From the NCBI GenBank assembly GCA_028702545.1, contig JAQVOQ010000002.1, forward strand, positions 1 to 33,406: a DNA stretch of 33,406 nucleotides. The letters run 5' to 3'. The position numbers and the translations under genes were made by a program. Each line of letters opens with the position of its first letter. Position 1 is the stretch's first letter. The stretch comes from Clostridia bacterium. GTDB lineage: Bacteria > Bacillota > Clostridia > Christensenellales > UBA1242. The notes under the pieces were generated by a model. That model was not told the origin of the DNA, ran no database searches, and worked only from the letters and a program-made list of their open reading frames with translations. This document shows, one piece after another, positions 943 through 22,224 of the stretch.

Positions 943-1093
943 AAATTCCCCCGTATTTTTAATGTAATTAATTATATTATTTAATAAAGTAAAAAACAAT
1001 AGTATTTTTAATAAAAAATGGGTAGATAAAGCGCACTCATATAATTGTGTTAAATTTGTCAAAATTAAAAAAATAAATTATTATCATATTTAT

Positions 1094-1127
1094 AAAAAAC
1101 TCAACCTTAAATCGAGTTGAGTTTTTT
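1094..1127. terminator. intrinsic terminator ending the tasA-like/sipW/HD-GYP operon
   Basis: CTCAAC (1100-1105) pairs with GTTGAG (1116-1121), flanked by A and T runs, immediately downstream of the minus-strand stop at 1132. Confidence 0.7.
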
Positions 1128-1131
1128 ATAC

Positions 1132-1776
1132 TTACCATTTAACCCTTAAAACTTTTTTAACAAAAATTTTTGCAAGGCTTAAGTCAAATTGAGTACCGGA
1201 ACAACGCTTTATCTCTTCCACTGCTAGTTTTTTAGAAAGAGCTTTTCTATATGGACGATTTGAAGTCATAGCATCATAGCTGTCTGCAAGAGCTATAATA
1301 CGAGCAGGTAAGCAAATTTGCTCACCACTTATTTGATTTGGATAACCTTGTCCATCCCATCTTTCGTGGTGTTCTAGCACAAATTGTGAAATTTTTTCTA
1401 AATCATTAGATAAATTTAGTATTTTGCTTCCCATTAAACTATGGGTTTTAATTTTTTCAAACTGAAGACTTGTTAATTTTTGTTTGCTATTTAGTATTTC
1501 ATCTGAAATACCTAATTTTCCAATATCGTGCATAAGTGCTGCAAGAGAAATTTGTCTTATAGTGTCTTTATCTAAGTTTACACTTTGAGCAAGTTTTTTT
1601 GCCAACTTACTTGTTCGTTTTGAATGTGAAAAATAGTTTACACTTTTATTTGCCAGCGCATGCATGATCATCTTTTTATCGTTTTCAATATTTTCAACAT
1701 AATCAGCATTATCAACGATAAATAGTAACATATCTTGTAGAATATTATTTTTTGTTGTAGCTATTTTTTCCATCAT
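1132..1776 (-). CDS. stand-alone HD-GYP domain phosphodiesterase
   Basis: 214 aa with the HD motif LMHDIGK and the HHERWDGQGYP signature. A GAGGA RBS is present. The gene starts only 24 nt after the sipW stop, so it is probably co-transcribed. Confidence 0.9.
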   Translation of the reverse strand: MMEKIATTKNNILQDMLLFIVDNADYVENIENDKKMIMHALANKSVNYFSHSKRTSKLAKKLAQSVNLDKDTIRQISLAALMHDIGKLGISDEILNSKQKLTSLQFEKIKTHSLMGSKILNLSNDLEKISQFVLEHHERWDGQGYPNQISGEQICLPARIIALADSYDAMTSNRPYRKALSKKLAVEEIKRCSGTQFDLSLAKIFVKKVLRVKW

Positions 1777-1800
1777 CTATCCTCACAGTTAGTATTTTAT

Positions 1801-2361
1801 TTATTTTTTCTTTTTGCCAATCTTTAGGTAATCCGCTACTAAAAATATTATTACTATGTCAAAAATTATTACTGATTTGCCAAATGGAGATTCAGCAAAC
1901 ATTAATAAGCTTCCAAGTTTAGGTATCTTAAAAGCAAAAATTCCAATAATGTCATCTTGAGTTATTTCCCAGTCGTCCCAGTCCACATAACTAGTAACAT
2001 TTTCTCTTTTTGTATTAAATGTTTTGTTGCCAAATTCATCGGTAGTTACATTTGCTATGTAATGGACAACTATTTCGTTTTTTCCATTATCATTTAAATC
2101 ATGATAAAAACTTATAATAGTGTCTACGACTAAATCCTCAGGGTTATAATTATTATCAACAATAACTATATCTCCACGACTAATTGTTGGACTCATACTG
2201 TTTGACACTATAATAAAATGTTGTTTAGTATTGAAGAAGGGAACAAAGTTAAAAATCACAAACCCAACAGCATAAATAATAAATAGTATGCATAAAAAAC
2301 GAATCCATTTTTTTAATTCGGAAGTGTCTTTTTTACTAGTTAAGTTGTTATTTTTTGCCAT
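1801..2361 (-). CDS. sipW: SipW-type (S26B, ER/archaeal-like) signal peptidase I
   Basis: 186 aa. An N-terminal TM helix is followed by the Ser box SNSMSPTISRGDIVIV, a later His box (VVHYIANV) and a C-terminal TM. The gene sits directly downstream of a protein with a SipW-class signal peptide. Confidence 0.8.
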   Translation of the reverse strand: MAKNNNLTSKKDTSELKKWIRFLCILFIIYAVGFVIFNFVPFFNTKQHFIIVSNSMSPTISRGDIVIVDNNYNPEDLVVDTIISFYHDLNDNGKNEIVVHYIANVTTDEFGNKTFNTKRENVTSYVDWDDWEITQDDIIGIFAFKIPKLGSLLMFAESPFGKSVIIFDIVIIFLVADYLKIGKKKK

Positions 2362-2499
2362 GCTATTTACCCAAAGCCCTTGTTATTAAAAAAAGAAAAG
2401 TTTATAATTTATACATTCTTTGCTTTTTTAAGTAAAATTTATTTTGTTTTTAAACAATACTGCATTAATATATGCATTATAAATAATTTTAAAGTTTGA

Positions 2500-3039
2500 T
2501 TATGCTTCTGTTACTTCAAAACTAATTTCAAATGTAATAGAATTTCCTGCAAGCGCAAGATAAGCTGCATCATAATCTTCTGCGTCTAATAAACTATCAT
2601 CAATTGTAACGCTTAAGCTAACTATAACATCACTATTTTGAATAGTTCCTGGGTTAGTAACTACTACGCTGATTAAACCATAAGGGTTTGCAACTGAATC
2701 AACTTCAATATTGCTAACTGTTACTTCTAAATCTAATGCTGCGTCAAGTGGTTCTGCAATTCTTACAGTATATTCTAAAACTACTTCATGAGTATCACCA
2801 GTTTTTAATATAGCGTCTGCTGGAACTAAACTACCATCTGTTAAAGGATCAATTTCAACATCTAATACAACCAATTCTAAACCTTGACCAACAGTTACAA
2901 TGTCTTGCTCTAGACGGTTTACTGTTAATGAATCCCACCATGAAAATGCGATTGTAGAACCTCCTAAAAGTATTACTGCGAAAATAAGTACTAAAATTTT
3001 TCTCATCATTTGATTTTTTTCTTTTTTACCAGTTTCCAT
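2500..3039 (-). CDS. TasA/camelysin-like secreted protein with a SipW-dependent-type signal peptide
   Basis: 179 aa with a GGAGG RBS at 3048-3052. The signal peptide ends LLGGSTIAFSWWDS (compare TasA GGGTWAAFND). The C-terminal strand NSITFEISFEVTEA resembles TasA NSIKLQFSFEATQ. Confidence 0.7.
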   Translation of the reverse strand: METGKKEKNQMMRKILVLIFAVILLGGSTIAFSWWDSLTVNRLEQDIVTVGQGLELVVLDVEIDPLTDGSLVPADAILKTGDTHEVVLEYTVRIAEPLDAALDLEVTVSNIEVDSVANPYGLISVVVTNPGTIQNSDVIVSLSVTIDDSLLDAEDYDAAYLALAGNSITFEISFEVTEA

Positions 3040-3071: not shown

Positions 3072-3110
3072 AAAAAACAAAAAGCCACATTTATACAATA
3101 TAAATATGGC
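3072..3110 (-). terminator. leader (attenuator) terminator upstream of the tasA-like gene
   Basis: The minus-strand RNA forms GCCAUAUUUAUA (3099-3110) paired with UAUAAAUGUGGC (3084-3095), loop UUG, followed by UUUUUGUUUUUU. One pair is G.U on the minus strand but C.A on the plus strand, so the hairpin is strand-specific. It lies between the promoter and the RBS. Confidence 0.75.
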
Positions 3111-3178
3111 ACCTGGCTATCTTGCTGTGCAAGACCATATAGTTTTCCGTCACTAGATCACTCTAGTTTTAGCTTTTT
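3100..3178 (-). promoter_or_regulatory. candidate riboswitch aptamer, GEMM-I (c-di-GMP-I)-like
   Basis: The minus-strand RNA reads GCUAAAAC-CUAGA-GUGA-UCUAG-UGACGGAAAAC-UAUAUGG-UCUUGC-ACA-GCAAGA-UAGCCAGGUGCCAUAU. It has a GNRA-capped hairpin and a second hairpin closed by AUAUGG/CCAUAU, whose 3' strand overlaps the terminator arm. The strings echo the Vc2 motifs GGCAAACC..GGGACGCAAAGCC..UAGCGGGGUUACC. No covariance-model search was run. Confidence 0.45.
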
Positions 3179-3218
3179 CATAATTTTTGATTACTTTTTA
3201 TTTTTCTTAATCTTTTTT

Positions 3219-3493: not shown

Positions 3494-3568
3494 TGGTGCA
3501 CCCGTCAGGACTCGAACCCGAAATATTTGTTTCGAAGACAAATGTGATATCCGTTTCACTACAAGTGC
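3494..3568 (-). tRNA. tRNA-Arg (anticodon UCG), CCA encoded
   Basis: A manual cloverleaf works. Acceptor GCACUUG pairs with CGGGUGC (two G.U pairs); D arm is GUGA-AACGGAUA-UCAC; anticodon arm is UUUGU-CUUCGAA-ACAAA; T arm is UCGGG-UUCGAGU-CCUGA; discriminator A precedes CCA. Confidence 0.9.
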
Positions 3569-3581
3569 AAATAACATCAAT

Positions 3582-3610
3582 AGTTTAATGTTTGATAGTC
3601 TCTTTGTCAA
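3582..3610 (-). promoter_or_regulatory. promoter of the tRNA-Arg gene
   Basis: On the minus strand, TTGACA (3605-3610) is followed by a 17-nt spacer and TAAACT (3582-3587), about 13 nt upstream of tRNA position 1. Confidence 0.6.
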
Positions 3611-3728
3611 ATCAATTTTTTCTAGTTTTAAAAAAATAAGCTTTTACTGTTAAACAAATCAATAATAATTGTTTAGTTTTTATTATTATGCTATATTTAT
3701 AATATGAAAATGACAAAAGAGGGAAAAG

Positions 3729-4358
3729 ATGAACTTATTTGATATTTTAAATAAAGAATACGAATTGAGAGTAAATCCAGCTGAAAAATTTGACCTTGTA
3801 AATGTTTCACGCTATTTTAATGAAGATGAAGACAGATACAAGCATATTTTGGGCGTTGCAGCACATATGAAGGCGCTAGTTGAACAACTTGGACTGGACG
3901 ATGAAGAAAAAGAAGACTTAATGAAAATAGCATATCTTCACGATATAGGATATTCTAAAAGAGTTATGTCAAGAGGATTTTATGCACTAGATAGTGCAAT
4001 TTTTGCACTTGAGAAAGCATTTGGCGAAACAGTTGCGCTTGCTATTATGTTTCACACCGCAGCTTACGGCGAGTCAAGGCACTTGAGTGTTAGCATTAAA
4101 TATATTTATGACAAAGCCAAATTGCTATTAAATGCAAATGAAAAAGCAAAACGATATGTTGAGCTTATAACCTATTGCGACCTTCATACCGAGAGCGATG
4201 GAAGACCGACGACAACGCCAAGACGCATATTTAAAATACTAGCAAGATATGAAAAAGGCAGTCCAACTTATAAGAACATAAAAGCACACAAAAGATATTT
4301 TAAAAATCTAACTAAAAAAATTAGAACAAGCGTTTTAAAAGAAAAAATTGTTAGTTAA
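3729..4358 (+). CDS. HD domain-containing phosphohydrolase
   Basis: 209 aa with H..HD spacing (HILGVAAHM ... AYLHDIGYS ... MFHTAAY). RBS is AGAGGGAAAAG. It lacks the GYP motif. Confidence 0.8.
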   Translation: MNLFDILNKEYELRVNPAEKFDLVNVSRYFNEDEDRYKHILGVAAHMKALVEQLGLDDEEKEDLMKIAYLHDIGYSKRVMSRGFYALDSAIFALEKAFGETVALAIMFHTAAYGESRHLSVSIKYIYDKAKLLLNANEKAKRYVELITYCDLHTESDGRPTTTPRRIFKILARYEKGSPTYKNIKAHKRYFKNLTKKIRTSVLKEKIVS

Positions 4359-4557: not shown

Positions 4558-5229
4558 TTGAAAAAATTAGACATTTCAAAAAAAGGCTTTGTAGAGGTAA
4601 ATGCCTCTTCAAAAGCACTTAATACTGCTTTAAATTATATTCTTTTTTTAAGTGTAATAATCAGTATTGCATTTTTTTCTTTTTCTTATTTTTTTATTGA
4701 TGTGCAAGTCGTAGGACCATCAATGCAACCTACTGTCAATGCACAATGGACAACAGAAGATAATTATAAGCAAGACACTGCGTATATTAAAAAAAGCAAC
4801 AATTATAATAAAGGAGATATAATTGTTGCGCAGTCAACGGGAGACCTCTATGTTATTAAAAGATTAATAGCAATAGAGGGCGACAGAGTAAATATTGTAG
4901 AAAATTTAATAAGCGGTGAAATAGAGCTTTATTTAAATAATGAGTTATTAGTTGAAGATTATGTCGTTTATAAAGATGGTATGAGTTATACTTTAAATAA
5001 CTTTAATAATTTAAGGTCAACAATGCCAGAAAATTTTGTCGAAGATGATTTAATTATACCAGAAAATTATGTGTTTTATTTAGGCGACAACCGTGGTCAA
5101 AGTCAAGATTGCAGTTATTATGGACCAATAGAAAAAGAAAAAGTTATAGGCAAGGTTGATATTATAGTGCCTTATGGTCAAACTTTTGTGGGGTTTATGT
5201 GGCAAGAGTTTATATCATTATTTAATTAA
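4558..5229 (+). CDS. lepB: signal peptidase I (bacterial LepB type)
   Basis: 223 aa. A TM helix is followed by GPSMQPT (Ser box), IKRLIAIEGD (Lys box) and GDNRGQSQDCSYYGP. TTG start with an AAGGAAAA RBS. Confidence 0.9.
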   Translation: MKKLDISKKGFVEVNASSKALNTALNYILFLSVIISIAFFSFSYFFIDVQVVGPSMQPTVNAQWTTEDNYKQDTAYIKKSNNYNKGDIIVAQSTGDLYVIKRLIAIEGDRVNIVENLISGEIELYLNNELLVEDYVVYKDGMSYTLNNFNNLRSTMPENFVEDDLIIPENYVFYLGDNRGQSQDCSYYGPIEKEKVIGKVDIIVPYGQTFVGFMWQEFISLFN

Positions 5230-5262: not shown

Positions 5263-6018
5263 TTATACTTCATATTTTGGTGCTTTTTGCCTTAGAACAT
5301 CAAAGTCAAGTATTGAATTAAATTCTCTATTAAAAACCTTAAATAGCCCGTCTTTGTTAAAGCTATAATAATCGTCCTTAGCAATAATTAAATGGTCCAT
5401 AACGCAAATGCCATTTAGCGACAAAGACAAATAAACTTTTTTAGTTAAAATAATATCTTCTGCGCTCGGCTGACTAGTACCACTTGGATGATTATGTACT
5501 AAAATTATTCCGCTCGCACTCGTTTGAAGTGCAGTTTGAGTTATCTGTTGCAAATTAAGTGACACTTGATTGTTTGTTCCTTTTGACAAAAGTTTAGCCA
5601 GCAAAACTTTGCTTTTTGAGTTTAAACATATTAAATAAAATTCCTCATAAGGCACGAGCTTTATCATATCTCCTAAATAGTCAAAAACTTGCATAGGGCT
5701 AGTAATACACACGCCACTTTGCATTTTGCTTTTTTTATAAGCTTTTAATATTTGAGGAATAAGTTCAATAAAAGCAGAGGCTTTTTCGCCCATTCCATCT
5801 ACTTTCATTAAATCAGATGTTTTAGCCTCTAAAACTTTTGCCAAACTACCAAACTCTTTAATAAGTTTATGCGCAATAGGGTTTGTATCAACTCTAGGTA
5901 AATAAAAACTTAAAATAAGTTCTAATACTTGGTGCTCATTAAAACTATCAAGCCCATTTTCAATGGCTCTAACTCTTAATCTTTCTCTATGCCCTTCGTG
6001 CAAATTTTCGTCTTTCAA
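5263..6018 (-). CDS. radC: RadC-like JAB/MPN domain protein
   Basis: 251 aa with N-terminal GHRERLR, helix-hairpin-helix-like KVDGMGEKA and the JAMM motif HNHPSGTSQPSAED. TTG start with an AAGGA RBS. Confidence 0.9.
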   Translation of the reverse strand: MKDENLHEGHRERLRVRAIENGLDSFNEHQVLELILSFYLPRVDTNPIAHKLIKEFGSLAKVLEAKTSDLMKVDGMGEKASAFIELIPQILKAYKKSKMQSGVCITSPMQVFDYLGDMIKLVPYEEFYLICLNSKSKVLLAKLLSKGTNNQVSLNLQQITQTALQTSASGIILVHNHPSGTSQPSAEDIILTKKVYLSLSLNGICVMDHLIIAKDDYYSFNKDGLFKVFNREFNSILDFDVLRQKAPKYEV

Positions 6019-6113: not shown

Positions 6114-6911
6114 TTAAAATAGTTTTTTAATATTTGGAGTGGGTATTTGGCGCTTAATAGGTATCCCTAGTTTTTTGGCTATCTCTATGCTTTGCTTTTT
6201 AAAGCACATATACCAAGCAACACAATAAACATTAGGGTCATCTGTTTCTAATTGTTGACGCTCCAAAAGCTCTTTTACTGTTTGCGGTTGCCTCAATATA
6301 ACATCATCTCCTAACCTCCAATTAGCGGGAGTCGAAACATCTTCTAAATCAGTTATTTGTAAGGCCTGTATAACCCTTCTTACTTCTTCTAAATTTCTGC
6401 CAGTTTTGTGCCCATAATATAATATGGCCCGTATTCTTGCATCGGGATCAATTACAAACAAGGTACGAATAGTTCTTGTATTGGTTTCACCGCGATGAAT
6501 CATCCCATACTTATTGCTTATTTCCATCGTAGGGTCTGCTATTATTGGAAAGTTTATGTTAATATCTTTTAAACCATTCCATTCTATTTGATAAATGCTC
6601 TGTATCCACTCTAAATGTGAATCTATTGAATCAACACTCAAACCAAGAAGCTCGGTGTTCATATCTTTAAATTGTTGTTGCATTGTTTGAAATATCATAA
6701 ACTCACTCGTACAAACGGGCTCAAAGTCACCAGGATGACTAAAAAACACAACCCACTTTCCAGCATAATCAAAAGGAAAGTTAACGGGTCCTTTTGTTGT
6801 TTCTGCTTTAAAAGGTGCAGCACGCTCTCCAATTAGAGGCATTTTATATATTATTGGAGAGCGACCAGTTTCGCCAGTTTGCATGGCGTCTGTTTGATTT
6901 TTAATATCCAT
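6114..6911 (-). CDS. Prx6-like peroxiredoxin paralog with a variant active site (PGDFEPVC)
   Basis: 265 aa with an AAGGAG RBS. The AhpC/TSA fold motifs FSHPGDFEPVCTSEF, TIRTLFVIDP and C-terminal YCVAWYMC (C-x5-C) are present. The Thr of PxxxTxxC is Glu (codon 6720-6722). There are N- and C-terminal extensions. Confidence 0.85.
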   Translation of the reverse strand: MDIKNQTDAMQTGETGRSPIIYKMPLIGERAAPFKAETTKGPVNFPFDYAGKWVVFFSHPGDFEPVCTSEFMIFQTMQQQFKDMNTELLGLSVDSIDSHLEWIQSIYQIEWNGLKDININFPIIADPTMEISNKYGMIHRGETNTRTIRTLFVIDPDARIRAILYYGHKTGRNLEEVRRVIQALQITDLEDVSTPANWRLGDDVILRQPQTVKELLERQQLETDDPNVYCVAWYMCFKKQSIEIAKKLGIPIKRQIPTPNIKKLF

Positions 6912-6928
6912 AAAAGCTCCTTGATTTG

Positions 6929-7747
6929 CTATTTATTATTTGTAGGATTGCGCCATATAACTTTTGCACTATTAGGTGAAGAATTTTTGTTTATATTAGT
7001 GCTGTTTTGATTTTGTTTAGCACCACTAGTATCTTTTTTTAGGCATAAATACCAATCTGGGCAATAAACATTATTATCTATAATATTTCTTTTTCTGCGG
7101 TCAATATCTCCATCTATTGTCATAGGAGGAGGTAGTATTATATCATCACCAGGCATCCAGTTTGCAGGAATATGAACATTTTCGGTGTCGTGCTTTATAA
7201 CAGCTGTTACAAGACGCCTAATTTCTTCTCCGGACTTGCCTACTTCTCTTGGGTAAATTTGAATAGCTCTAATTTTTCCGTTAGGGTCAATCAAAAAACC
7301 ACCTCTTACTGTTTCCGTCTTAGTTTCACCTCTTCTTAAAAGCCCGTATCTGCGAGCAATTTCCATACTGCTATCTGATATTAGAGGAAAAGTAATTATG
7401 GTATTTTTAAAATCTAAATACTCCATATTATAAATACTCTCAAGCCAAGCAACATGAGAAAACATAGAATCTATGCTTAATGCAACTATTTCTACATTTA
7501 ACTTTTTATAAAATTCTTCACTTTCCATAAGTTCAAATAGTTCTGTTGTGGCAACGGGTCCAAAGTCGGCAGGATATGAATAAAACAAAACCCATTTACC
7601 CTTGTAATCAGCTGGGAAATTAATTGGACCTTTTGTAGACTCGGCTTTAAAAGGTGGAGCTGGTTCTCCTATTAAGGGCAAAGTGTAGATAGGTGGTATT
7701 TGATAAGTATCCTGAGCGTTTATGTTTTTTTTATTTTTTTCATCCAT
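6929..7747 (-). CDS. peroxiredoxin-like protein lacking the peroxidatic Cys (PADFGPVATTE)
   Basis: ORF-track ORF trimmed to the ATG at 7747, which has an AAGGAG RBS. Motifs are YSYPADFGPVATTE (Ala codon 7550-7552 in place of the peroxidatic Cys, Gly in place of Thr), TVRGGFLIDP and YCPDWYLC. It ends 18 nt upstream of paralog 6114..6911. Confidence 0.85.
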   Translation of the reverse strand: MDEKNKKNINAQDTYQIPPIYTLPLIGEPAPPFKAESTKGPINFPADYKGKWVLFYSYPADFGPVATTELFELMESEEFYKKLNVEIVALSIDSMFSHVAWLESIYNMEYLDFKNTIITFPLISDSSMEIARRYGLLRRGETKTETVRGGFLIDPNGKIRAIQIYPREVGKSGEEIRRLVTAVIKHDTENVHIPANWMPGDDIILPPPMTIDGDIDRRKRNIIDNNVYCPDWYLCLKKDTSGAKQNQNSTNINKNSSPNSAKVIWRNPTNNK

Positions 7748-7909
7748 AAAAAAACTCCTTTTTACTAAGTTATATATGAAAAAAGTATAAAAACAGTTAA
7801 CATAAAAATTAATATTGAGTAAAAAAGAGCCTAAAACAGCCTGTTTTGGTGCGAATCTTTTAAAAATGCACATTTTTTGATTAAATTAGTAGATTTATTT
7901 TCTAAAAAT

Positions 7910-7918
7910 TGGTACAAT
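7910..7918 (+). promoter_or_regulatory. extended -10 promoter element for hup
   Basis: TGgTACAAT lies 32 nt upstream of the hup ATG. No good -35 element. Confidence 0.45.
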
Positions 7919-7949
7919 TAATTATCAAAAATTTTTTTTGGAGGAAATT

Positions 7950-8222
7950 ATGAATAAAGGACAATTTGTAAAATCATTAGCTGAAAAAGCAGATTTAACA
8001 GCAAAACAAGCAGATGTAGCTTATAAAGCATTTGTAGAAACAGTGGTTGAGGAATTAAAAAAAGGTGAAAAAGTTCAATTAGTTGGCTTTGGTACTTTTG
8101 AATTACAACATAGACCAGCAAGAGAGGCTTTCAATCCTTTAACAGGTCAAAAAGTTAAAGTTGCAGCATCTAATGCACCAAAATTAAAAATAGGAAAAAG
8201 TTTTAAAGAATTATTTAACTAA
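7950..8222 (+). CDS. hup: HU family DNA-binding protein
   Basis: 90 aa: MNKGQFVKSLAEK...VQLVGFGTFE...NPLTGQKVKV...KIGKSFKE. The GGAGGA RBS at 7940-7945 supports the ATG at 7950 rather than the TTG at 7938. Confidence 0.9.
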   Translation: MNKGQFVKSLAEKADLTAKQADVAYKAFVETVVEELKKGEKVQLVGFGTFELQHRPAREAFNPLTGQKVKVAASNAPKLKIGKSFKELFN

Positions 8223-8238
8223 AAATTAAATAAAAAAT

Positions 8239-8264
8239 GTGTGGCATTTGCCACACTTTTTTTT
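8239..8264 (+). terminator. intrinsic terminator after hup
   Basis: GTGTGGC (8239-8245) pairs with GCCACAC (8250-8256), loop ATTT, followed by T8. Confidence 0.85.
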
Positions 8265-8343
8265 ATGCATTTTTTAAAATATTATTAACAAAATTAAATT
8301 TATATGTTAAAATAATAAGCATTATAAATAAGAGGTGTAAAAG

Positions 8344-8769
8344 ATGGCAAGAAACGAAAACATACAAAGAACTTATATTATGCTAAAACCAGATGCGTAC
8401 AAAAGAAAATTGATGGGCGAAATTATTGGACGCATAGAAAAAAAAGGTTTTAAAATTACCGCTATGAAAATGATGACATTAAATGATAAAGTTTTAAAAG
8501 AACATTATTCACATATTGCAGATCAACCATTTTTTCCAGAAATTGAAGACTTTATGACCTCAGCACCAGTGGTTGGAATGATAGTAGAAGGTAGTGATGT
8601 AATAACTGGAATGAGGCGCTTGATGGGTCCAACACATTGGACAGAAGCGCAACCCGGCACAATTAGAGGCGACTATTCTTGCATTATTGGGGAAAATTTA
8701 ATTCACGGATCTGATAGTATTGATGGCGCAGAAGAAGAGATTGAAAGGTTCTTTGGCAAAAATGCTTAA
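8344..8769 (+). CDS. ndk: nucleoside diphosphate kinase
   Basis: 141 aa with the YIMLKPDA start, NLIHGSD active-site His and GTIRGDY. AGAGGTG RBS. Confidence 0.95.
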   Translation: MARNENIQRTYIMLKPDAYKRKLMGEIIGRIEKKGFKITAMKMMTLNDKVLKEHYSHIADQPFFPEIEDFMTSAPVVGMIVEGSDVITGMRRLMGPTHWTEAQPGTIRGDYSCIIGENLIHGSDSIDGAEEEIERFFGKNA

Positions 8770-8780
8770 TTTAATAATTT

Positions 8781-8808
8781 AAAAAGCAGTTATTTAAACT
8801 GCTTTTTT
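8781..8808 (+). terminator. intrinsic terminator after ndk
   Basis: AGCAGT (8785-8790) pairs with ACTGCT (8798-8803), followed by a T run. Confidence 0.8.
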
Positions 8809-8820
8809 ATAAAATGCATA

Positions 8821-8849
8821 TTGAAATTTGATATTTTATATGTTATAAT
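8821..8849 (+). promoter_or_regulatory. sigma-A promoter of the three-paralog operon
   Basis: TTGAAA (8821-8826) is followed by a 17-nt spacer and TGtTATAAT (TATAAT at 8844-8849). Confidence 0.7.
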
Positions 8850-8886
8850 TTGTGAATAAATAACTAAAGGCAGGGACTTGAGTTTT

Positions 8887-9906
8887 ATGCAAATAAAAAA
8901 AATAAAAGCATCAGGCGAGTTTAGGCACCGTTACATACAAATTAATGATGCAATATATACATTTAATCAAGCATTAATATCTTTTGCTAAAAAAGCAGAT
9001 GAAATTAGAAAAGTTCATTATTCAATGGATATCAAAAATGAAATACCGGTTACCGCTAAGTTCATTTATCCATCTGTTGAAGTTATGCAAAAAGAGATAG
9101 ATGCCAACATTAAAAATATAATTGAAAACTTGCATTTAAAAGCAAGTGATAAACAAATAGACGAGTTTTTTTCAGTATATAAATTACAAGATTACTTTTC
9201 AAATAAACTAACATACAGTATGTTAGCACAAGAAGAAAGAGGATATCAGTTCGAAGACAATAACTATTATATGAGTGCTATAAAATATAATAGGGATAAG
9301 CTTAGGTCGTTTAATTTAAAACCAGCGCCAGCACCGCAAGAAAGAAAGTTGTATAGAATTCAAAAACATAAAATTTATGAAGAGATGTCAAATGAAAATG
9401 AGTTTATAAAAAGCAATGTTCCTTTTAATCAAATAAATTATTTAAAAGGCTTATATAATGTATTTGTAAGAGAAAATGGAGTATGTTCGGAATTTTCTAA
9501 CGCATTTAGTTACATTTTAAACAAGATAGATATAGTAAGTTACAAAGTTTTGGTAAGTAAATTTATAAATAATACAGAGCTGTTCCACGCTTATAATTTA
9601 ATTGAGTTTGTAACAAAAGGACAAAAAAAATATTATGCTTGTGATTTAACCAGAAGCGTTTGTAACAAAGAAAAATACAATAATTTAAAAGTTAAAAATA
9701 GAATTCTAGGTTTTGGAATGGGAAGTGACCAATTAGAAGATACCAACAACTCTAAAATTCTATCTATTCAAAAATATGGCGAAAATTTACAAAAAGAATT
9801 TTTTCCACAAGTAGAAGAAGACATTTTAATAAACGATTTATCCGAAAGGTTGATAGAAAAACTTTTAAAAACTAATGATTTAGTTGAAGAGAAGGAAATA
9901 AATTAA
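8887..9906 (+). CDS. transglutaminase-like (Cys-His-Asp papain-fold) protein, paralog 1
   Basis: The ATG at 8887 is preferred: the TTG at 8878 abuts the RBS, and MQIKKIK parallels MEIKKVV of paralog 2. Core is NGVCSEFSNAF (Cys codon 9484-9486) ... FHAYNLIEF ... YYACDLT. No signal peptide. Confidence 0.75.
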   Translation: MQIKKIKASGEFRHRYIQINDAIYTFNQALISFAKKADEIRKVHYSMDIKNEIPVTAKFIYPSVEVMQKEIDANIKNIIENLHLKASDKQIDEFFSVYKLQDYFSNKLTYSMLAQEERGYQFEDNNYYMSAIKYNRDKLRSFNLKPAPAPQERKLYRIQKHKIYEEMSNENEFIKSNVPFNQINYLKGLYNVFVRENGVCSEFSNAFSYILNKIDIVSYKVLVSKFINNTELFHAYNLIEFVTKGQKKYYACDLTRSVCNKEKYNNLKVKNRILGFGMGSDQLEDTNNSKILSIQKYGENLQKEFFPQVEEDILINDLSERLIEKLLKTNDLVEEKEIN

Positions 9907-11003
9907 TGGAAATTAAAAAAGTTGTAACTGATAAGTTTTATAAAAATCAATATATTAATTTTGGTGGAAATATTTTTGAAATTAATTATTTTAAAGCGAT
10001 GAACCCATCATTAATTGGTGCGTTAGAAGAGGTTGAGGCAATATTAAAAAATTCTAAAGACAATTTAAAGGCGGCAAAATTTATAGAAAAAATAACCTTT
10101 AAGCCTTTTCCATCTAATAAAAAAATGATAGAAACTATTAATAAAAAATGCGAAAGTATTTGTGATTTTTTACAGTTAAATGAAATAAAAGGTGAGGATG
10201 CTAAAATAGTAAAATCACTCGTATTATTTAATTATCTTTCAAAAAATACAAGATATAATATGACCGTGCAAGAGTCGATAGATATTGATAATTTTGAAAA
10301 AATAATTAATAAAATGGAAAATAAACTAATTAAACTAAAAGAAGAACATCAAAATTTAGAAATTCTTAAAAATCTAATGGAAGATAAAAATGATAAAAAA
10401 ATTCTTTCAGCACAAATTGAGCATGTAAAAAAAGATTTTATATCACTATCAAACCAAAGCAATAAGTGTCTTATAGAGTTTTTGAATGAATTTTATATAA
10501 AAGCCATCTATAGCACTTTAATATATAATCAAGGTGTTTGCTCAGGATTTAGTTATACATATCAACTTTTATTAAAAACTGCAGGCATCAATGCATTTTC
10601 GTTAGAAGCATATAAAGAAGGTGAAGCTACGGGGCATGCATTTAACTTACTAGAATTTAAACAGGGAAATAAAACAACTTATCATATAGCGGATGTAACC
10701 TCGGCAATTGCGCAAGGTTCAAAAGATAGTAAAACAATTTTAAAGTCTTTTAGTATACCAAAAGAAAAGTATTTTTATATGATTAATCAAAATGTAGCGA
10801 CAATAAAAAAATTATCAAGTCTTAAAAAAGATTCGCGAACTACATTTTTTGAAAATATCTATACCTCAACTTTATGTGGCTTAATATATAACAAGATAAA
10901 TAATAAAGAAGTATTAGAAAAACAAAAATTAAAAGCACTAATTTTTATTGACAAGCATAGCAAAATTAAAGAGCAAATATTAAACGATGAAATAATAAAA
11001 TAA
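9906..11003 (+). CDS. transglutaminase-like (Cys-His-Asp) protein, paralog 2
   Basis: Its start overlaps the upstream stop (TAATG at 9904-9908). Core is QGVCSGFSYTY (Cys codon 10539-10541) ... GHAFNLLEF ... YHIADVT. The N-terminal half is helical. Confidence 0.8.
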   Translation: MEIKKVVTDKFYKNQYINFGGNIFEINYFKAMNPSLIGALEEVEAILKNSKDNLKAAKFIEKITFKPFPSNKKMIETINKKCESICDFLQLNEIKGEDAKIVKSLVLFNYLSKNTRYNMTVQESIDIDNFEKIINKMENKLIKLKEEHQNLEILKNLMEDKNDKKILSAQIEHVKKDFISLSNQSNKCLIEFLNEFYIKAIYSTLIYNQGVCSGFSYTYQLLLKTAGINAFSLEAYKEGEATGHAFNLLEFKQGNKTTYHIADVTSAIAQGSKDSKTILKSFSIPKEKYFYMINQNVATIKKLSSLKKDSRTTFFENIYTSTLCGLIYNKINNKEVLEKQKLKALIFIDKHSKIKEQILNDEIIK

Positions 11004-11035
11004 ATATTGAAATGTAAACTTGAGGGGAAAAAAAT

Positions 11036-12154
11036 ATGAAGCAAGAAGAAAAAGTAATACCAGTAGTAGCTGACGAATTTTACAAAGATTCTTATGTCGG
11101 TATAGGATATGATATTTTTGAGTCACAATATGCACTAGATAGGTATCCCGAGCATCAAGAAGCAATTTTAAAAGCTATTGAAGTAGTTAAACCTGCAAAA
11201 AATGTTATAAAATTGACATATAGGGCTTTTCCAAGCAATAATAAAATGATAGAAATTTTATTGAATAAGCGTGAAACAATTTATAAAAACTTGAATTTAG
11301 ATAAGATTGTTGGCAAAGGTTCGGATATAATAAAAGCATGGGTTTTATATGATTATATATCTTTAGGTTTGTTTTATAATATGGCAACTATGGAAGAAGT
11401 TGTAACAAAAATAAAAGGCGTTGAAAAAATATCTGAGACTTACGAAGAGTCATTTAAAAAACAAAATTTATTTGCTAAACTTTATAAATTAGCAAAAACA
11501 GAAGAAGAAAAACTTAAAATAGCTACTATGTGGGAAAAATTAGGAAGAAAAATATCAAATATTGAAACAGATTATTACAAAAAAGAAACTCAAGCGGATA
11601 ACCGTACTTATTTAAGACAACTTTATAGCGCACTTATAAGAGGCAAAGGAGTTTGTGCCGAGTTTAGTTATGTTTATCAATTTTTACTAGAAGGAATTGG
11701 CATAAAAAGTATATATACTATAATTTATGCGGAGGGTTCTAAATTTGCGCATGCAATTAATTTAGTTGAATTTAAAAAAGATAACAAAAAAGCATATTAT
11801 ATTGTAGATCTTACTGCGGGCAGTTCTTACGCTAAATCGTGCGAGGGCTCATATTTTAATTATCATGGTTTTGCAGTACCAAAAGATAAATATTTTGCTT
11901 TAGAAGATAATACGCAAAAGATTTGTGCAGCGGGTTATTTTAATGGATTAGATATTGATTTAAATAAAAAAATAGTAAAATTTTCATCAAGAGAATCAAC
12001 TATGGAAATACTAAGAAGAAAGATTGTAAATACTTTTGATTTCCAAAAGGAATATGAAAAAGCTGCAAGATTTTCACTATCAAGTTATTCTGAATTTGGT
12101 ACGGGCAAAACTAAAGAGCCTCAAAAAGAATATAAACAACAAGAAATTTTATAA
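11036..12154 (+). CDS. transglutaminase-like (Cys-His-Asp) protein, paralog 3
   Basis: GAGGGGA RBS. Core is KGVCAEFSYVY (Cys codon 11654-11656) ... AHAINLVEF ... YYIVDLT. The N-terminal motif FYKDSYVGIGYDIFE parallels FYKNQYINFGGNIFE of paralog 2. Confidence 0.8.
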   Translation: MKQEEKVIPVVADEFYKDSYVGIGYDIFESQYALDRYPEHQEAILKAIEVVKPAKNVIKLTYRAFPSNNKMIEILLNKRETIYKNLNLDKIVGKGSDIIKAWVLYDYISLGLFYNMATMEEVVTKIKGVEKISETYEESFKKQNLFAKLYKLAKTEEEKLKIATMWEKLGRKISNIETDYYKKETQADNRTYLRQLYSALIRGKGVCAEFSYVYQFLLEGIGIKSIYTIIYAEGSKFAHAINLVEFKKDNKKAYYIVDLTAGSSYAKSCEGSYFNYHGFAVPKDKYFALEDNTQKICAAGYFNGLDIDLNKKIVKFSSRESTMEILRRKIVNTFDFQKEYEKAARFSLSSYSEFGTGKTKEPQKEYKQQEIL

Positions 12155-12576: not shown

Positions 12577-13266
12577 ATGAACAATAATATAATAAGCGTA
12601 ATAAAAGACTATGATAACTACGCGACAATAACGAAAGAATATGATAATTACTTGCAATCAATTCAACAAACTACGCCAAAATATTTAAATGCAATAATAA
12701 TTATGGCGGTAGAAAAAGTTATGAGAATTCACAGTTTAGAAACATATAATCATGCCGAAAATATGATTAAAATTGTAACGCCTTTAGCTAAAGCACTTAA
12801 TTTAAGCAAAGAGGATTCAAAAAAGATAAAACTAATCGCAAAATTGCATGATATTGGTAAACTTTCAATAAGTCAAAGTATTTTAAACAAAAAATCACCA
12901 CTTGATGATAAAGAGTGGAATATTATTAAAACTCATCCTGTTGAATCATACAAAATAGTAAGGTGCATTGATTGCTCCATAGATGTGGCAAAAGATATTT
13001 TGCATCACCACGAGCGCTATGATGGCACAGGATACCCCAATAAATTAAAAGGTGAGGAAATACCATACTTGTCAAGAGTGATAGCTGTTGTTGATGCTTA
13101 TGAGGCTATGTTAAATGGAAGGATATATAAACAGCCAAGGCCAAATGCTGAGGTTATAGCTGAAATTAAGCATTGTTCGGGCACGCAATTTGACCCCAAT
13201 ATCGTAAAAGTTTTTGTAAAAACATTTGACAAACAAAAAAATAAAGAGGACTTTAAAAACCTTTAA
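12577..13266 (+). CDS. stand-alone HD-GYP domain phosphodiesterase (second copy)
   Basis: 229 aa with KLHDIGK and HHHERYDGTGYP. AAGGAG RBS at 12566-12571. Confidence 0.9.
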   Translation: MNNNIISVIKDYDNYATITKEYDNYLQSIQQTTPKYLNAIIIMAVEKVMRIHSLETYNHAENMIKIVTPLAKALNLSKEDSKKIKLIAKLHDIGKLSISQSILNKKSPLDDKEWNIIKTHPVESYKIVRCIDCSIDVAKDILHHHERYDGTGYPNKLKGEEIPYLSRVIAVVDAYEAMLNGRIYKQPRPNAEVIAEIKHCSGTQFDPNIVKVFVKTFDKQKNKEDFKNL

Positions 13267-13317: not shown

Positions 13318-13980
13318 CTAAACTTCTTTATAACAAAGCCACCAGTCTTTGCATTCATATTTTCCTTCTTGCATACCGCTTAGCCTTGCATCAATTTGTT
13401 GATTTGATTGAGGAGGCGGATAAACCATAACATTTTTGCCAAGCCACAGGTTATTAGGAAAGTTCTCAGGTGCTGCCATTTTATATTTATCTGACATTTG
13501 AAGTGCGTTTAAAGACCTTAAGACCTCGTCAACACTCCTGCCAATTTCTGGCGGATAGGTCATGGTTAGTCTAATAACTCCTCTTGGATCAATTATAAAA
13601 AGTTTTCTTACAGTTTTAGCACCCTTTTTAGCATGAACCATGCCTAACTCTTTTGCAACATTTCCTAAGGGGTCTTCAATAATAGGAAAGGGCACAGCCG
13701 TATTAGCATTTTCTTCAATCCACTCCACCCATTTAAAATGTGGGCCTAATCCATCAACGCTTAAGCCTAAAAGGTTGGCACCTAGTGCTTTAAATTCATC
13801 CACTCTATTTGACATAGCAACAAATTCTGTAGTGCAAATAGGCGTGAAGTCGCCAGGATGACTAAATAAAATTAGCCATTTACCAGCATAATCCTGAGGT
13901 AAGTTTTTAATGCCATCGGTCGTGCTAACTTGCATTTGTGGCAGTTCATCGCCTAGCATTAACTGCTTTTCTTCGTTCAT
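13318..13980 (-). CDS. peroxiredoxin, Prx6-like with a canonical active site and C-terminal C-x5-C
   Basis: 220 aa with FSHPGDFTPICTTEF (intact PxxxTxxC), TVRKLFIIDP and the C-terminal YECKDWWLCYKEV. AGGAGA RBS. Confidence 0.9.
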   Translation of the reverse strand: MNEEKQLMLGDELPQMQVSTTDGIKNLPQDYAGKWLILFSHPGDFTPICTTEFVAMSNRVDEFKALGANLLGLSVDGLGPHFKWVEWIEENANTAVPFPIIEDPLGNVAKELGMVHAKKGAKTVRKLFIIDPRGVIRLTMTYPPEIGRSVDEVLRSLNALQMSDKYKMAAPENFPNNLWLGKNVMVYPPPQSNQQIDARLSGMQEGKYECKDWWLCYKEV

Positions 13981-14097: not shown

Positions 14098-14943
14098 TTA
14101 ATTATTGCCGCCAGCATTTTGACCATAAGGTGGGCCAGCAATATTATTTATAATCCTATTGATTATTTCTGTTACTGCAACGCTTGAGGCCTCTGCATTT
14201 AGCAGTTTATATAATTCCATCATGTTCATACTAGCTAAATATTCTTCATGTCCTAAAAGCGTTGGAAACCTGTTTATTATTTTTTTGATGTAACAATATT
14301 TTGCGGGAGTAACATTTATATTTTGCTCAAAATGTTGTTTTAAGGCATTAAATTCTTCTATTGCCTCTTCATCATACTCTTCTACAATAATATTTCCATT
14401 AAGTCCATTGCTATTTAAATATGTGTTTACCATTGCTTGCAAATTATTTTTATAAGCATTTTCAACATTTTTATTTTTATTTTTTACAGAAAGCATTATT
14501 GCATTTTCAAAAGAATTTTGTAAGTAGCCATCATTTTGTGCTTTTGTAAGCACTGCATTTAAGGCAAGGTTATAGTTTAATCCAGGCAAAGTTAAGCCGG
14601 CTAAGAAAGTTGCTCCGTCGTCATTTATACCAGTTGCTCCAACTACAATCGCATCTGAGTTTAATGTTAATTCAATGCTTGGATTAATATCAAGTGTAAG
14701 CGTAGTATAAGCAGATTCAAGATTTGGCATAAGTGCGTTAAACATAACAAAAGCTATTAATACGAATGCCATAACAGCGGGTACAAGCCTAAAAACTAGT
14801 GAGCGTTTTGACGCCTTAGCTTTTGCTAGTTGATTACTCATTACAACAATGTCGGACTTTTGTCTAACTTTATCTATTACATCGGGTATGGGTAGTGAGT
14901 TTAATTCAATATTTAATTGTTTTATTAATTGTTTTTTATTCAT
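14098..14943 (-). CDS. membrane anti-sigma factor with an RsgI-type juxtamembrane (DINPS) domain
   Basis: 281 aa. The start overlaps the sigma stop by 8 nt. It has a short cytoplasmic N-terminus and one TM (LVPAVMAFVLIAFVMF). The ectodomain begins TLTLDINPSIELTLNSD...INDDGATFL (DINPS at 14677-14691), like B. subtilis RsgI ..IDINPSVEM..LNDEG. Confidence 0.75.
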   Translation of the reverse strand: MNKKQLIKQLNIELNSLPIPDVIDKVRQKSDIVVMSNQLAKAKASKRSLVFRLVPAVMAFVLIAFVMFNALMPNLESAYTTLTLDINPSIELTLNSDAIVVGATGINDDGATFLAGLTLPGLNYNLALNAVLTKAQNDGYLQNSFENAIMLSVKNKNKNVENAYKNNLQAMVNTYLNSNGLNGNIIVEEYDEEAIEEFNALKQHFEQNINVTPAKYCYIKKIINRFPTLLGHEEYLASMNMMELYKLLNAEASSVAVTEIINRIINNIAGPPYGQNAGGNN

Positions 14944-15463
14944 TACCCTTAACCTCCTTTTGTAATTTTTTAATGGCTTTACTGTAAATCCATAATACAG
15001 TTCCTAAGGGTTTGTCTAATTGAGTAGCAATTTCTCTATGTTTATATCCTAAAGTATATAGGGTCACCACCTGTCTTTCTTCAAAGTCTAATATTGTAAG
15101 CAATTTTTTTAAGAGCATATTATTTATCATACTGTCTTCATTACTTGAACTAAATAGATACTCATTTTCAACTTCATCTGTAATAATTTCTCTCTTTCTT
15201 CTATTATATGTATTTATTGCTATATTGCGAGAAAGGCTCATTATCCAAGCTTGTGCATTTGTATTTGCTCTATATTGGCCAATAGTTTTCCTTATTTTAA
15301 TATATGCGTCTTGCATTAATTCTTCCGCTATACCATAGTCTTTTATTATTGAAAATATAACAAAGAAAACCTGCTTTTTTGTTTGATTATAAACTGTTTC
15401 AAAAGCTTGTTCGTCACCTGTTTGCATTTTTTGCATATTTTGTTCTAATAGTTGCTTATCCAA
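14936..15463 (-). CDS. ECF-type sigma-70 family RNA polymerase sigma factor
   Basis: 175 aa. Region 2 (AFETVYNQTKKQVFFVIFSIIKDYGIAEELMQDAYIKI) and the region 4 HTH (LGYKHREIATQLDKPLGTVLWIYSKAIKKL) are recognisable. TTG start with an AAGGA RBS. Confidence 0.9.
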   Translation of the reverse strand: MDKQLLEQNMQKMQTGDEQAFETVYNQTKKQVFFVIFSIIKDYGIAEELMQDAYIKIRKTIGQYRANTNAQAWIMSLSRNIAINTYNRRKREIITDEVENEYLFSSSNEDSMINNMLLKKLLTILDFEERQVVTLYTLGYKHREIATQLDKPLGTVLWIYSKAIKKLQKEVKGNE

Positions 15464-15496
15464 TTGTTTTATCCTTTGTTACTTTACTTTAATGAT

Positions 15497-15525
15497 ATTC
15501 TATCAAAACATTAAATTCTTAACAA
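15497..15525 (-). promoter_or_regulatory. candidate sigma-A promoter of the sigma/anti-sigma operon
   Basis: On the minus strand, TTGTTA (15520-15525) is followed by a 17-nt spacer and TGaTAGAAT (TAGAAT at 15497-15502). Confidence 0.5.
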
Positions 15526-15596
15526 ACAAATAACATACAAAACTTTTGTTACACTAATAATAACAATCAAAATGAAGTGTTTATTGGTAAAACTAT

Positions 15597-15625
15597 TAAA
15601 AAGCCACATAAAATGCAGCTTTTTA
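15597..15625 (-). terminator. intrinsic terminator after the 414-aa coiled-coil gene
   Basis: The minus-strand RNA forms AGCUGCAU-UUU-AUGUGGCU followed by UUUU. The G.U pairs make it specific to the minus strand. Confidence 0.6.
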
Positions 15626-15655
15626 AAGGATAAAACAAAATGTTAATTTGTATTG

Positions 15656-16900: not shown

Positions 16901-16984
16901 AATAATTTCCTCCATATTTTTATTTTTTTAGTCTACGAACAATAAAACCATCTCAACATAGTTTTTATTGGCAATATTAAAAAA

Positions 16985-21928: not shown

Positions 21929-22224
21929 AATAACCTCCTTTAAAAAATAAACATCTTTTACATCATATAAGTAAAAAATGTTAGCAAAGTCATAATGCAA
22001 AAACATATCCTTTGTTTTATTATTTTATATACTTACATTATATAGTATATTATCTAATTTTAAAAATAATTTTATATACTTTTGTCAATTTAAAAAAGAG
22101 TTTGTATATAACTTTTATGTTTAATTTAAAAAACCTATTATTTGTTTATCTATTTGACAAACAGCCTCGCTATGTGCTATTTTTATTAAATAGTATTAAT
22201 ATAAAAACTGTGAATATGTTTTAG

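Follow-up and report, generated by a model that had tools for sequence, protein, structure and literature searches.

A candidate c-di-GMP-induced operon for a TasA-like protein, its signal peptidase and an HD-GYP protein in a Clostridia bacterium

What would a compact operon that joins a small secreted protein, a signal peptidase and a predicted cyclic dimeric GMP (c-di-GMP) phosphodiesterase be for, and which signal would turn it on? The operon in question lies on contig JAQVOQ010000002.1 (assembly GCA_028702545.1, Clostridia bacterium), of which a stretch of 33,406 nucleotides (nt), called the window below, was analysed; all coordinates follow the forward-strand numbering of the window. Its three genes are all encoded on the minus strand. 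Gene 1 (2500-3039) encodes the 179-amino-acid (aa) precursor of an acidic, secreted beta-sandwich protein, possibly a remote member of the TasA superfamily and a putative fibre subunit. Gene 2 (1801-2361) encodes an archaeal/endoplasmic reticulum (ER)-type (S26B, SipW-like) signal peptidase I of 186 aa with two transmembrane segments, and gene 3 (1132-1776) a predicted stand-alone HD-GYP phosphodiesterase of 214 aa. In the leader of the operon we found a c-di-GMP-I riboswitch aptamer that overlaps an intrinsic terminator, and the association of this aptamer class with the subunit gene and the peptidase is conserved in related loci. With confidence a little above even, we lean towards the view that the locus is a c-di-GMP-induced matrix or fibre module.

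An earlier, sequence-only reading of this DNA had reported three minus-strand open reading frames (ORFs) here, and all three are present, together with the two gaps between them, a 138-nt spacer between genes 1 and 2 (2362-2499, minus strand) and 24 nt between genes 2 and 3. The two peptides that it had quoted from the gene 1 product, LLGGSTIAFSWWDS (residues 24-37) and NSITFEISFEVTEA (C-terminus), were also found in the translation. A GGAGG Shine-Dalgarno sequence lies 8 nt upstream of gene 1, and the start of gene 3 is preceded by GAGGA. No significant structure (z = 0.1), no Rfam match and no terminator was detected in the 138-nt spacer. The common 3' terminator that had been proposed is a real hairpin of 16 base pairs (bp) followed by a U-run (1091-1130, minus strand; -17.6 kcal/mol, z = -6.1), and none of 200 shuffled sequences was as stable. 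The pattern scan for terminators did not detect it; pairs near the loop were probably left out of its count, so that the remaining loop exceeded the 8-nt limit. The putative shared promoter, a sigma-70-type TTGACT-17-TAAAAT (10/12 matches in the consensus scan), was located exactly at 3247-3219 on the minus strand. However, matches of this quality were not enriched in this DNA of 30% G+C, with 21 found in the window against 17 +/- 4.3 expected from shuffles, and the promoter is thus plausible and not more. The 99% identity of this region with other assemblies, which extends from position 3537 downwards, includes the promoter site, and the DNA of these assemblies above 3537 differs, which fits an operon having its own promoter.

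Two elements of the leader had been missed in the sequence-only reading, and both bear on the inducing signal. A c-di-GMP-I (GEMM-I) aptamer occupies 3105-3183 on the minus strand. It scores 49.2 bits with the Rfam model RF01051, whose gathering score is 35 (E = 7e-7 with respect to the whole window), and covers the full model, 1-87. The ligand-reading nucleotides G20, A47 and C92 are present according to the alignment to the model, where G20 lies ahead of the first paired CU, A47 follows the closing GG and C92 is the central base of GCC. This is the combination associated with c-di-GMP, while A20 would suggest cyclic GMP-AMP (cGAMP). The UAU variant model remained under its gathering score for this aptamer (46.1 against 65.9). 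The terminator scan then gave, as expression platform, an intrinsic terminator at 3074-3110 (minus strand) that consists of a 12-bp hairpin (3084-3110) and a U-run. The 5' arm of this terminator, GCCAUAUUUAUA, starts with the last bases of the aptamer, C92 included, the shared segment being GCCAUAU. The terminator 3084-3110 was formed in the ligand-free minimum-free-energy fold of the leader (-13.1 kcal/mol), and when its first seven bases were withheld no stable hairpin remained before the U-run.

Since an aptamer 3' end that is held by the ligand cannot pair into the terminator, the leader is predicted to be an ON switch. The same aptamer/terminator overlap was observed in nine near-clade aptamers, the relatives that carry it being loci L001 (three aptamers), L003, L016 and L004 (three aptamers). 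Their inner stems differ in a compensatory fashion, such as UUUAUA/UAUAAA in the window, and, in two of the L001 aptamers, UUCCCU/AGGGGG (L001a) and UUUCCA/UGGAAA (L001b). ON logic has been proposed for GEMM in general (Weinberg 2007, PMC1950547). By homology, the leader is thus probably an ON-type c-di-GMP-I riboswitch that would respond to c-di-GMP, and the supposition of the sequence-only reading that the leader might sense a cyclic dinucleotide holds on this basis.

The link between aptamer and gene was then examined in 12 independent loci: the window; L001 (on the same contig as L002 and L101); L003; L004; L016; the L013-L018 group; L099; L100; L102; L103; L104/L105; and L106. One to three aptamers of the c-di-GMP-I class were located directly upstream of the gene 1-family gene in all 12. 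Six of these loci had been retrieved via the peptidase alone, and all six contained family genes and aptamers. The family gene stands beside an archaeal-type peptidase in the window, L003, L013/L017, L099, L100, L102, L103, L104 and L106. Tandem aptamers were found in L004 (triple, 5363-5657), L106 (double, 1113-1333) and L099 (double, 3565-3763), each aptamer with its own terminator-like hairpin, and L001 (5172-6619) contains three consecutive units of an aptamer and a subunit gene. Most related clusters are larger than that of the window: they comprise two or three paralogous subunits together with a 266-435-aa protein whose N-terminus is of the same type. These larger accessory proteins carry the canonical SipW-type motif AYAFFD or AFAFFD, and two of them contain CBM_5_12 carbohydrate-binding repeats. 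The window contains one subunit gene and no other ORF with the N-terminal motif, and no second subunit, tip protein or anchor was found there; it therefore holds a minimal version of the cluster.

Some aptamers of this set deviate from the common type. For two of them (L099, 3689-3763; L103, 5650-5727), the best match was the c-di-GMP-I-GGC variant RF03167 (gathering score 59), with which they scored 60.6 and 59.9 bits. In two Acholeplasmataceae loci (L013, 5809-5883; L017, 6254-6328), position 20 of the aptamer appears, by eye only, to be A and not G, the change tied to cGAMP sensing in GEMM-Ib, and the expression platform is longer, with a separate terminator.

No Pfam match (E <= 0.1) and no NCBIfam match was obtained for the gene 1 product. 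Eight close homologues besides itself were found among 5.8 billion proteins (E down to 1e-63), and the broad family alignment retrieved at least 17 proteins from the same set. When 185,579 reference genomes were searched with the gene 1 product by itself, no relative turned up. With an exhaustive profile search the family grew to 340 cluster representatives, mostly of 155-195 aa, and the few members that have a source name are all called hypothetical proteins. In their mature form the members are acidic proteins of about 150 aa. They share a Sec-type signal peptide ending in [A/T/S]-[F/Y]-[A/S] and a mature N-terminus of the form [Y/W/F]-W-D-x-L, in which the Trp at mature position 2 was found in 120 of 123 members and the Asp in 96 of 123; a strand containing Gly-x-Gly and a C-terminal I-[ST]-F-x-h-x-F motif are other common features. 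In the window protein, this motif reads A-F-S/W-W-D-S-L (the slash marks the predicted cleavage site). W34, W35, D36 and L38 are invariant, and the 20 residues after the signal peptide are conserved. Cleavage after S33 is predicted by the (-3, -1) rule and would leave a mature protein of 146 aa (range about 146-148), in line with the earlier estimate of only about 150 aa. The mature protein contains 19% Asp+Glu, 2% Lys+Arg and no Cys.

Two AlphaFold2 models of the gene 1 product, made from alignments of 9 and 17 sequences (predicted local distance difference test, pLDDT, 65 and 73.8), both contained a beta-sandwich over residues about 55-178. The conserved segment that follows the signal peptide was poorly placed in these monomer models (pLDDT < 50), which is expected of a donor strand. 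When both models were searched with Foldseek against 350,542 PDB chains, TasA ranked first for each, as the fibre structure 8aur_A (E 1.2e-2) and as the monomer structure 5of2 (E 4.8e-3, probability 0.99), with a template modelling (TM) score of 0.40 in both cases; a further TasA structure, 5of1, ranked fourth for the second model. The family was also aligned by hhalign to a TasA/CalY profile of 111 sequences that was derived from a search with TasA, the query sequence being identical to 8AUR. The two profiles were colinear end to end (score 31.1, P = 9.5e-4, probability 22%), and reversed or column-shuffled controls scored 9-18. With the single TasA sequence in place of this profile, hhalign gave nothing. 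By eye, the end of the signal peptide, GGSTIAFS/WWD, resembles that of TasA, GGGTWA/AFND. Taken together, models and profiles weakly suggest that the gene 1 product is a remote member of the TasA superfamily, outside the Pfam TasA/camelysin family. By analogy with TasA it is a probable fibre subunit, which would polymerise outside the cell. In the search of PDB sequences with the family profile, the best match was a GH65 domain (E 0.0035), which we judged to be spurious.

The gene 2 product passed the cut-off of TIGR02228, the archaeal-type signal peptidase I family (54.0 bits against 51.85), and remained far under that of the Bacillus SipW equivalog NF046067 (43.4 bits against 190). By these scores it is SipW-like in type and not a SipW orthologue. 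In an alignment to human SEC11A, Ser55 (SNSMSP) and His100 (VVHYI) lie opposite Ser56 and His96, a Ser/His pair and not the Ser-Lys pair of LepB-type enzymes. Hydrophobic segments at residues 18-44 and 158-182 flank the catalytic domain. An ordinary LepB-type signal peptidase I is encoded elsewhere in the window (4558-5229, plus strand; TIGR02227, 89.5 bits), beyond the tRNA gene upstream of the operon, which fits a dedicated role for gene 2.

The Acholeplasmataceae cluster in L013 (8631-10487; also L017 and L018) encodes an intact Ser/His/Asp signal peptidase of 211 aa and at least one peptidase-like paralogue of 192 aa, in which Thr/Tyr replace the catalytic Ser/His and which is probably inactive. 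It also encodes a 209-aa membrane protein that looks peptidase-like by eye and has no Pfam match.

The gene 3 product matched the Pfam family HD_5 over residues 36-200 (E = 9.8e-37; 126.7 bits against a threshold of 27.2) and no other domain. The residues H51, H83-D84, H112, H136-H137, D165 and G144-Y145-P146 are all in place, and the motif E135-HHERWDGQGYP-146 is intact. Its description as an HD-GYP protein without a sensor domain, starting 24 nt after gene 2, was thus correct. The closest solved relatives are PmGH (4mcw, 3.8e-32) and the cGAMP enzyme V-cGAP3 (5z7c, 1e-30), and a further one, 4r8z, was deposited as a cyclic di-GMP phosphodiesterase. Gene 3 encodes a predicted phosphodiesterase, and the riboswitch in the leader points to c-di-GMP as the relevant signal.

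Linkage of an HD-GYP gene to these clusters was found only in the sub-clade of the window. In L003, the gene order is that of the window, with gaps of 17-99 nt, and the HD-GYP gene closes a tight five-gene operon behind a single aptamer, the last four genes being 17-33 nt apart. In L001, which comes from a Clostridia metagenome-assembled genome (MAG), peptidase and HD-GYP are fused in a single protein of 624 aa with a low-complexity N-terminus (7541-9415; also in L002 and L101). Residues 225-385 form the peptidase part, with 43% identity to gene 2 (E = 1e-39), and residues 442-617 the HD-GYP part, with 44% identity to gene 3 (E = 3e-55); by a membrane segment between them (376-402) the HD-GYP is predicted to be placed in the cytoplasm. 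Of all the evidence that the HD-GYP belongs to the system, this fusion is the strongest, and together with the synteny in L003 it supports the coupling of the HD-GYP to the fibre and peptidase genes that had been proposed. In the neighbourhoods of homologues, whose survey had been suggested as a check, the peptidase is nearly always adjacent, and the HD-GYP is found in the sub-clade of the window only.

These elements can be combined in the following mechanism. Transcription would start near 3212 and run into the class-I c-di-GMP aptamer. In the absence of ligand, the 3' end of the aptamer (GCC-AUAU) would pair downstream, so that the terminator forms and transcription ends in the leader. When c-di-GMP is bound, this segment would be kept in the aptamer (C92 and helix P1), no terminator would form, and the polymerase would read through the three genes, presumably on one transcript. 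Gene 1 would give a Sec-exported precursor that the gene 2 peptidase cleaves after the A-F-S motif, freeing an acidic jelly-roll or beta-sandwich protein of about 146 aa with the N-terminus Trp-Trp-Asp-x-Leu. This new N-terminus would most likely serve as a donor strand, and extracellular fibres would arise by polymerisation, as in TasA and AbpX. The gene 3 product, a cytoplasmic stand-alone HD-GYP, would hydrolyse c-di-GMP and destroy the signal that induced it, and the induction would thus be self-limiting by negative feedback.

A number of observations weigh against this reading. For gene 1, the match to the TasA fold is weak, with a TM score of 0.40 and no PDB match at E <= 1e-3. The hhalign probability against the TasA/CalY profile was only 22%, and after removal of the signal peptides only the C-terminal strands aligned (P = 0.011). 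The window protein matched neither PF12389 (Peptidase_M73), which is carried by all 120 listed true TasA relatives, nor the SipW-type signal peptide model TIGR04088; two of 141 family members touched PF12389 (E = 0.0036) and one of 141 touched TIGR04088 (0.0043). The designation "TasA-like" therefore survives as a remote relationship, and membership of these two families does not. For gene 2, Glu120 (TKRENV) stands at the position of Asp122 of SEC11A, the conserved, catalytic Asp of the KGDN motif, whose counterpart in SipW is Asp106. In L003 this residue is Glu as well, in L001 it is Tyr, and in the Acholeplasmataceae loci L013/L017 it is Asp. For gene 3, seven of the eight ligands of the trinuclear metal site of PmGH are present and Asn47 replaces the third-metal Glu, Glu185 in the numbering of PmGH, with which the alignment to the chain agrees. 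V-cGAP3, a cGAMP enzyme, is nearly as close a relative as PmGH. No GGDEF gene was found in the 33-kb window. As regards the operon itself, a weak promoter-like site at 2514-2486 (9/12 consensus) precedes gene 2 and leaves room for its separate transcription. Outside the window, no HD-GYP was found within 5 kb in the six peptidase-retrieved loci or in the Acholeplasmataceae loci, and it is thus not a core part of the system. Finally, the L001 fusion gene lies behind a strong terminator (7253-7286), is preceded by a promoter-like site of its own, TTGACA-16-TATACT, identical to the one ahead of the first L001 aptamer, and lacks an aptamer. The riboswitch-driven feedback would therefore be limited to the arrangement seen in the window and L003 and would not apply clade-wide.

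One alternative is that the gene 1 product is a surface or secreted beta-sandwich protein without polymerisation, for instance an adhesin, a coat protein or one that binds the matrix, and that its likeness to TasA is that of any jelly-roll or Ig-like fold. The fold matches are weak, and snail agglutinin, pilins and other beta-sandwiches scored nearly as well as TasA with the gene 1 models. The 141-member family profile did not find TasA among PDB sequences, and the window lacks a second subunit, a tip protein or an anchor. However, TasA was the first of 350,542 chains for both models, and the conserved 20 residues after the signal peptide, with the invariant W34, W35, D36 and L38 and a pLDDT below 50, behave as a donor strand would. 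Relatives also cluster with two or three paralogous subunits and a tip-like CBM_5_12 protein that shares the N-terminal motif, and a dedicated TIGR02228 peptidase accompanies the subunit as in the TasA, AbpA, AbpX and Tafi systems. We consider a non-polymerising protein unlikely. An internal promoter that drives genes 2 and 3 independently of c-di-GMP, with the riboswitch controlling gene 1 only, is very improbable in our view. It would agree with the promoter-like site 2514-2486 at the 138-nt spacer and with L001, where the peptidase-HD-GYP gene is a separate unit and each fibre gene has its own aptamer. Yet neither a terminator nor a stable structure was detected in the spacer, gene 3 is followed by one strong terminator, L003 has the same gene order with gaps of 17-99 nt behind one aptamer, and promoter-like hexamers are as common in shuffled sequences.

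The role of the HD-GYP raises a different alternative, in which it acts locally with the signal peptidase at the membrane and not as a global feedback enzyme. It might lower c-di-GMP only at export sites, or it might be a trigger that binds c-di-GMP or pGpG and tunes processing or secretion. In L001, peptidase (225-385) and HD-GYP (442-617) form one polypeptide in which the HD-GYP lies in the cytoplasm beside the peptidase, and the fusion gene, with its own promoter-like site after a terminator, has no aptamer; moreover, the operon HD-GYPs lack the third-metal Glu that the other HD-GYP of the window (12577-13266) keeps. On the other hand, the HD-GYP is separate and soluble, with no membrane segment, in both the window and L003, and its catalytic HD and GYP residues are all intact. 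Local action would also be compatible with feedback, and we give this alternative a low probability. The preferred reading thus remains a c-di-GMP-induced matrix or fibre module with self-limiting induction.

In Bacillus biofilms, the main protein scaffold is formed by TasA-type fibres, which are known to be controlled by protein repressors and to which Bacillus c-di-GMP signalling is only loosely linked. Here, an RNA sensor would link production of a TasA-like subunit directly to c-di-GMP, and this link recurs in every related locus examined. For an unannotated family that occurs in uncultured gut Clostridia and Acholeplasmataceae (340 cluster representatives), this would provide a function and an inducer, both of them testable. 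The three-gene version of the window is small enough for whole transfer into a heterologous host, and it lends itself, as a simple system, to work on how the induction of matrix genes limits itself. The peptidase-HD-GYP fusion speaks for the signal-degrading enzyme being part of the secretion machinery. A bolder proposal, which we put forward only as a speculation and think decidedly unlikely, is that the gene 1 family of uncultured Clostridia and Acholeplasmataceae represents a minimal branch of the TasA superfamily that has so far gone unrecognised and is gated throughout by riboswitches of the c-di-GMP class, with a membrane complex of HD-GYP and peptidase in the lineage of the window, for which the L001 fusion is the covalent counterpart. 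If this were true, the export of subunits and the local destruction of their inducing signal would be directly coupled, a secretion-coupled second-messenger feedback that is undescribed for any fibre system.

Upstream of the operon lies a tRNA-Arg(TCG) gene (3494-3568, minus strand) that contains the breakpoint at 3537. Four assemblies (L005, L008, L009 and L010) share 99% identity with the window from 3537 down and are unrelated to it above. In L005 (1-2501), no more than the 3' 44 nt of the tRNA remain, and in front of them lie an AbiEii-type gene and small ORFs. The break inside the tRNA gene looks like the trace of a mobile element that integrated just upstream of the operon in some strains; in L003, too, a tRNA lies upstream of the aptamer. 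In L008, a 135-aa gene upstream had pointed to an inversion; this idea was rejected, as the other assemblies simply diverge from the window at 3537.

Beyond the tRNA, a 209-aa HD-domain protein is encoded at 3729-4358 (plus strand), near the LepB-type peptidase. The second stand-alone HD-GYP of the window (12577-13266, plus strand; HD_5 at 2.4e-32), which has the third-metal Glu without counterpart in gene 3, is preceded by three paralogous ORFs (8878-12154, plus strand; 342-372 aa) with the motif GVC[SA][EG]FS and no Pfam match. We considered whether it could be a second riboswitch-HD-GYP unit and discarded this idea, as no upstream aptamer was detected at E <= 1 and the three preceding ORFs have no signal peptides. 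Elsewhere in the window, three AhpC/TSA peroxiredoxin paralogues, two RsgI_M anti-sigma-like proteins and a T-box leader before pheS-pheT were identified (together at 6114-7873, minus; 13318-13980, minus; 14098-16915, minus; and 22201-22424, plus). The G+C content is 30.4%, and the 30 ORFs of at least 150 aa end in TAA (28) or TAG (2), never in TGA. Genetic code 4 was nevertheless rejected: reading TGA as sense merges no ORFs, which argues for the standard bacterial code, and Trp is encoded by TGG. The PheS protein of the window is 55-66% identical to those of uncultured gut Clostridia MAGs, mostly Clostridia bacterium, Acutalibacteraceae and Candidatus Onthoplasma, and no close reference genome was found.

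Among known systems, the tapA-sipW-tasA operon of B. subtilis (TasA; 8AUR, 5OF1/5OF2) is similar in that a secreted subunit, of jelly-roll fold in TasA and putatively so here, is encoded beside a dedicated archaeal/ER-type peptidase. In TasA and in the gene 1 product, the signal peptide ends in G-G-x-T-x-A and is followed by an aromatic-x-Asp N-terminus, and the C-terminal strand motif (N)SIxFxFSFEAT of TasA matches NSITFEISFEVTEA of gene 1. Unlike TasA, the gene 1 product does not belong to PF12389, and its mature form, at about 146 aa, is shorter than that of TasA (234 aa); some 70 residues from the middle of TasA are without counterpart in the alignment. The operon also differs from tapA-sipW-tasA in that it lacks TapA, has the subunit gene first and not last, includes an HD-GYP gene and encodes a peptidase with Glu at the position of SipW Asp106. 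Its predicted control is by a c-di-GMP riboswitch, whereas the Bacillus operon is controlled by the repressors SinR and AbrB.

Another related system is AbpX, recently described from TasA-superfamily biomatrix loci of archaea and Bacillota (bioRxiv 10.64898/2026.01.04.697558, January 2026). Its mature subunit has 163 aa with about 15% Asp+Glu and polymerises in a calcium-triggered, chaperone-free manner; its clusters contain an adjacent TIGR02228 signal peptidase I, minor subunits and tip proteins, and bacterial loci often also contain diguanylate cyclase and HD-GYP genes (10.64898/2026.01.04.697558). Judged by the published description only, the mature gene 1 protein is likewise small and acidic and is encoded next to a TIGR02228 peptidase, and its N-terminus, with Trp at mature position 2, parallels the donor-strand pattern of AbpX and TasA, which is aromatic at 2 and acidic at 4 (10.64898/2026.01.04.697558). 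AbpX loci differ in having a ten-helix signal peptidase I, against two transmembrane segments here, and a DUF5305 accessory protein, which was not found among the neighbour proteins scanned. The preprint mentions no riboswitches.

Each type of component is thus already known: GEMM-I ON switches, including tandem ones, TasA-superfamily fibres with a dedicated signal peptidase I, HD-GYP genes downstream of GEMM or near AbpX loci, and c-di-GMP feedback by way of an induced phosphodiesterase. In the searchable literature we found no c-di-GMP riboswitch before a TasA-like subunit, no description of the gene 1 family and no peptidase-HD-GYP fusion. The sequence-only reading had known of no described example of the arrangement. 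This should be put more cautiously, given that HD-GYP was listed in 2007 among the gene families downstream of GEMM (PMC1950547) and that AbpX with a peptidase and HD-GYP has been reported (10.64898/2026.01.04.697558); the riboswitch gating and the peptidase-HD-GYP fusion, however, appear undescribed.

Riboswitch control of surface proteins has a precedent in Bc3-5 of B. thuringiensis, a triple-tandem c-di-GMP-I riboswitch upstream of cspABCDE, five annotated cell surface proteins of which four have a predicted cell-wall anchoring motif, with no phosphodiesterase in the operon (PMC4759541). As in Bc3-5, predicted ON-type class-I riboswitches with terminators stand over putative surface-protein operons here, in tandem in L004, L099 and L106. 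Unlike it, the operon of the window encodes a putative TasA-like subunit with a signal peptidase and an HD-GYP, and cspABCDE was excluded as the same system on account of its annotated cell-wall-anchored surface proteins. Negative feedback of c-di-GMP through an induced phosphodiesterase is known from V. cholerae, where VpsR acts on CdgC (bioRxiv 10.1101/2024.09.01.610008). What the present operon would share with this case, and with HD-GYP genes downstream of GEMM, is that high c-di-GMP leads to more of the enzyme that removes it. In V. cholerae, however, the sensor is a protein transcription factor, whereas here the predicted phosphodiesterase is co-encoded with the structural output and, in one relative, fused to the peptidase.

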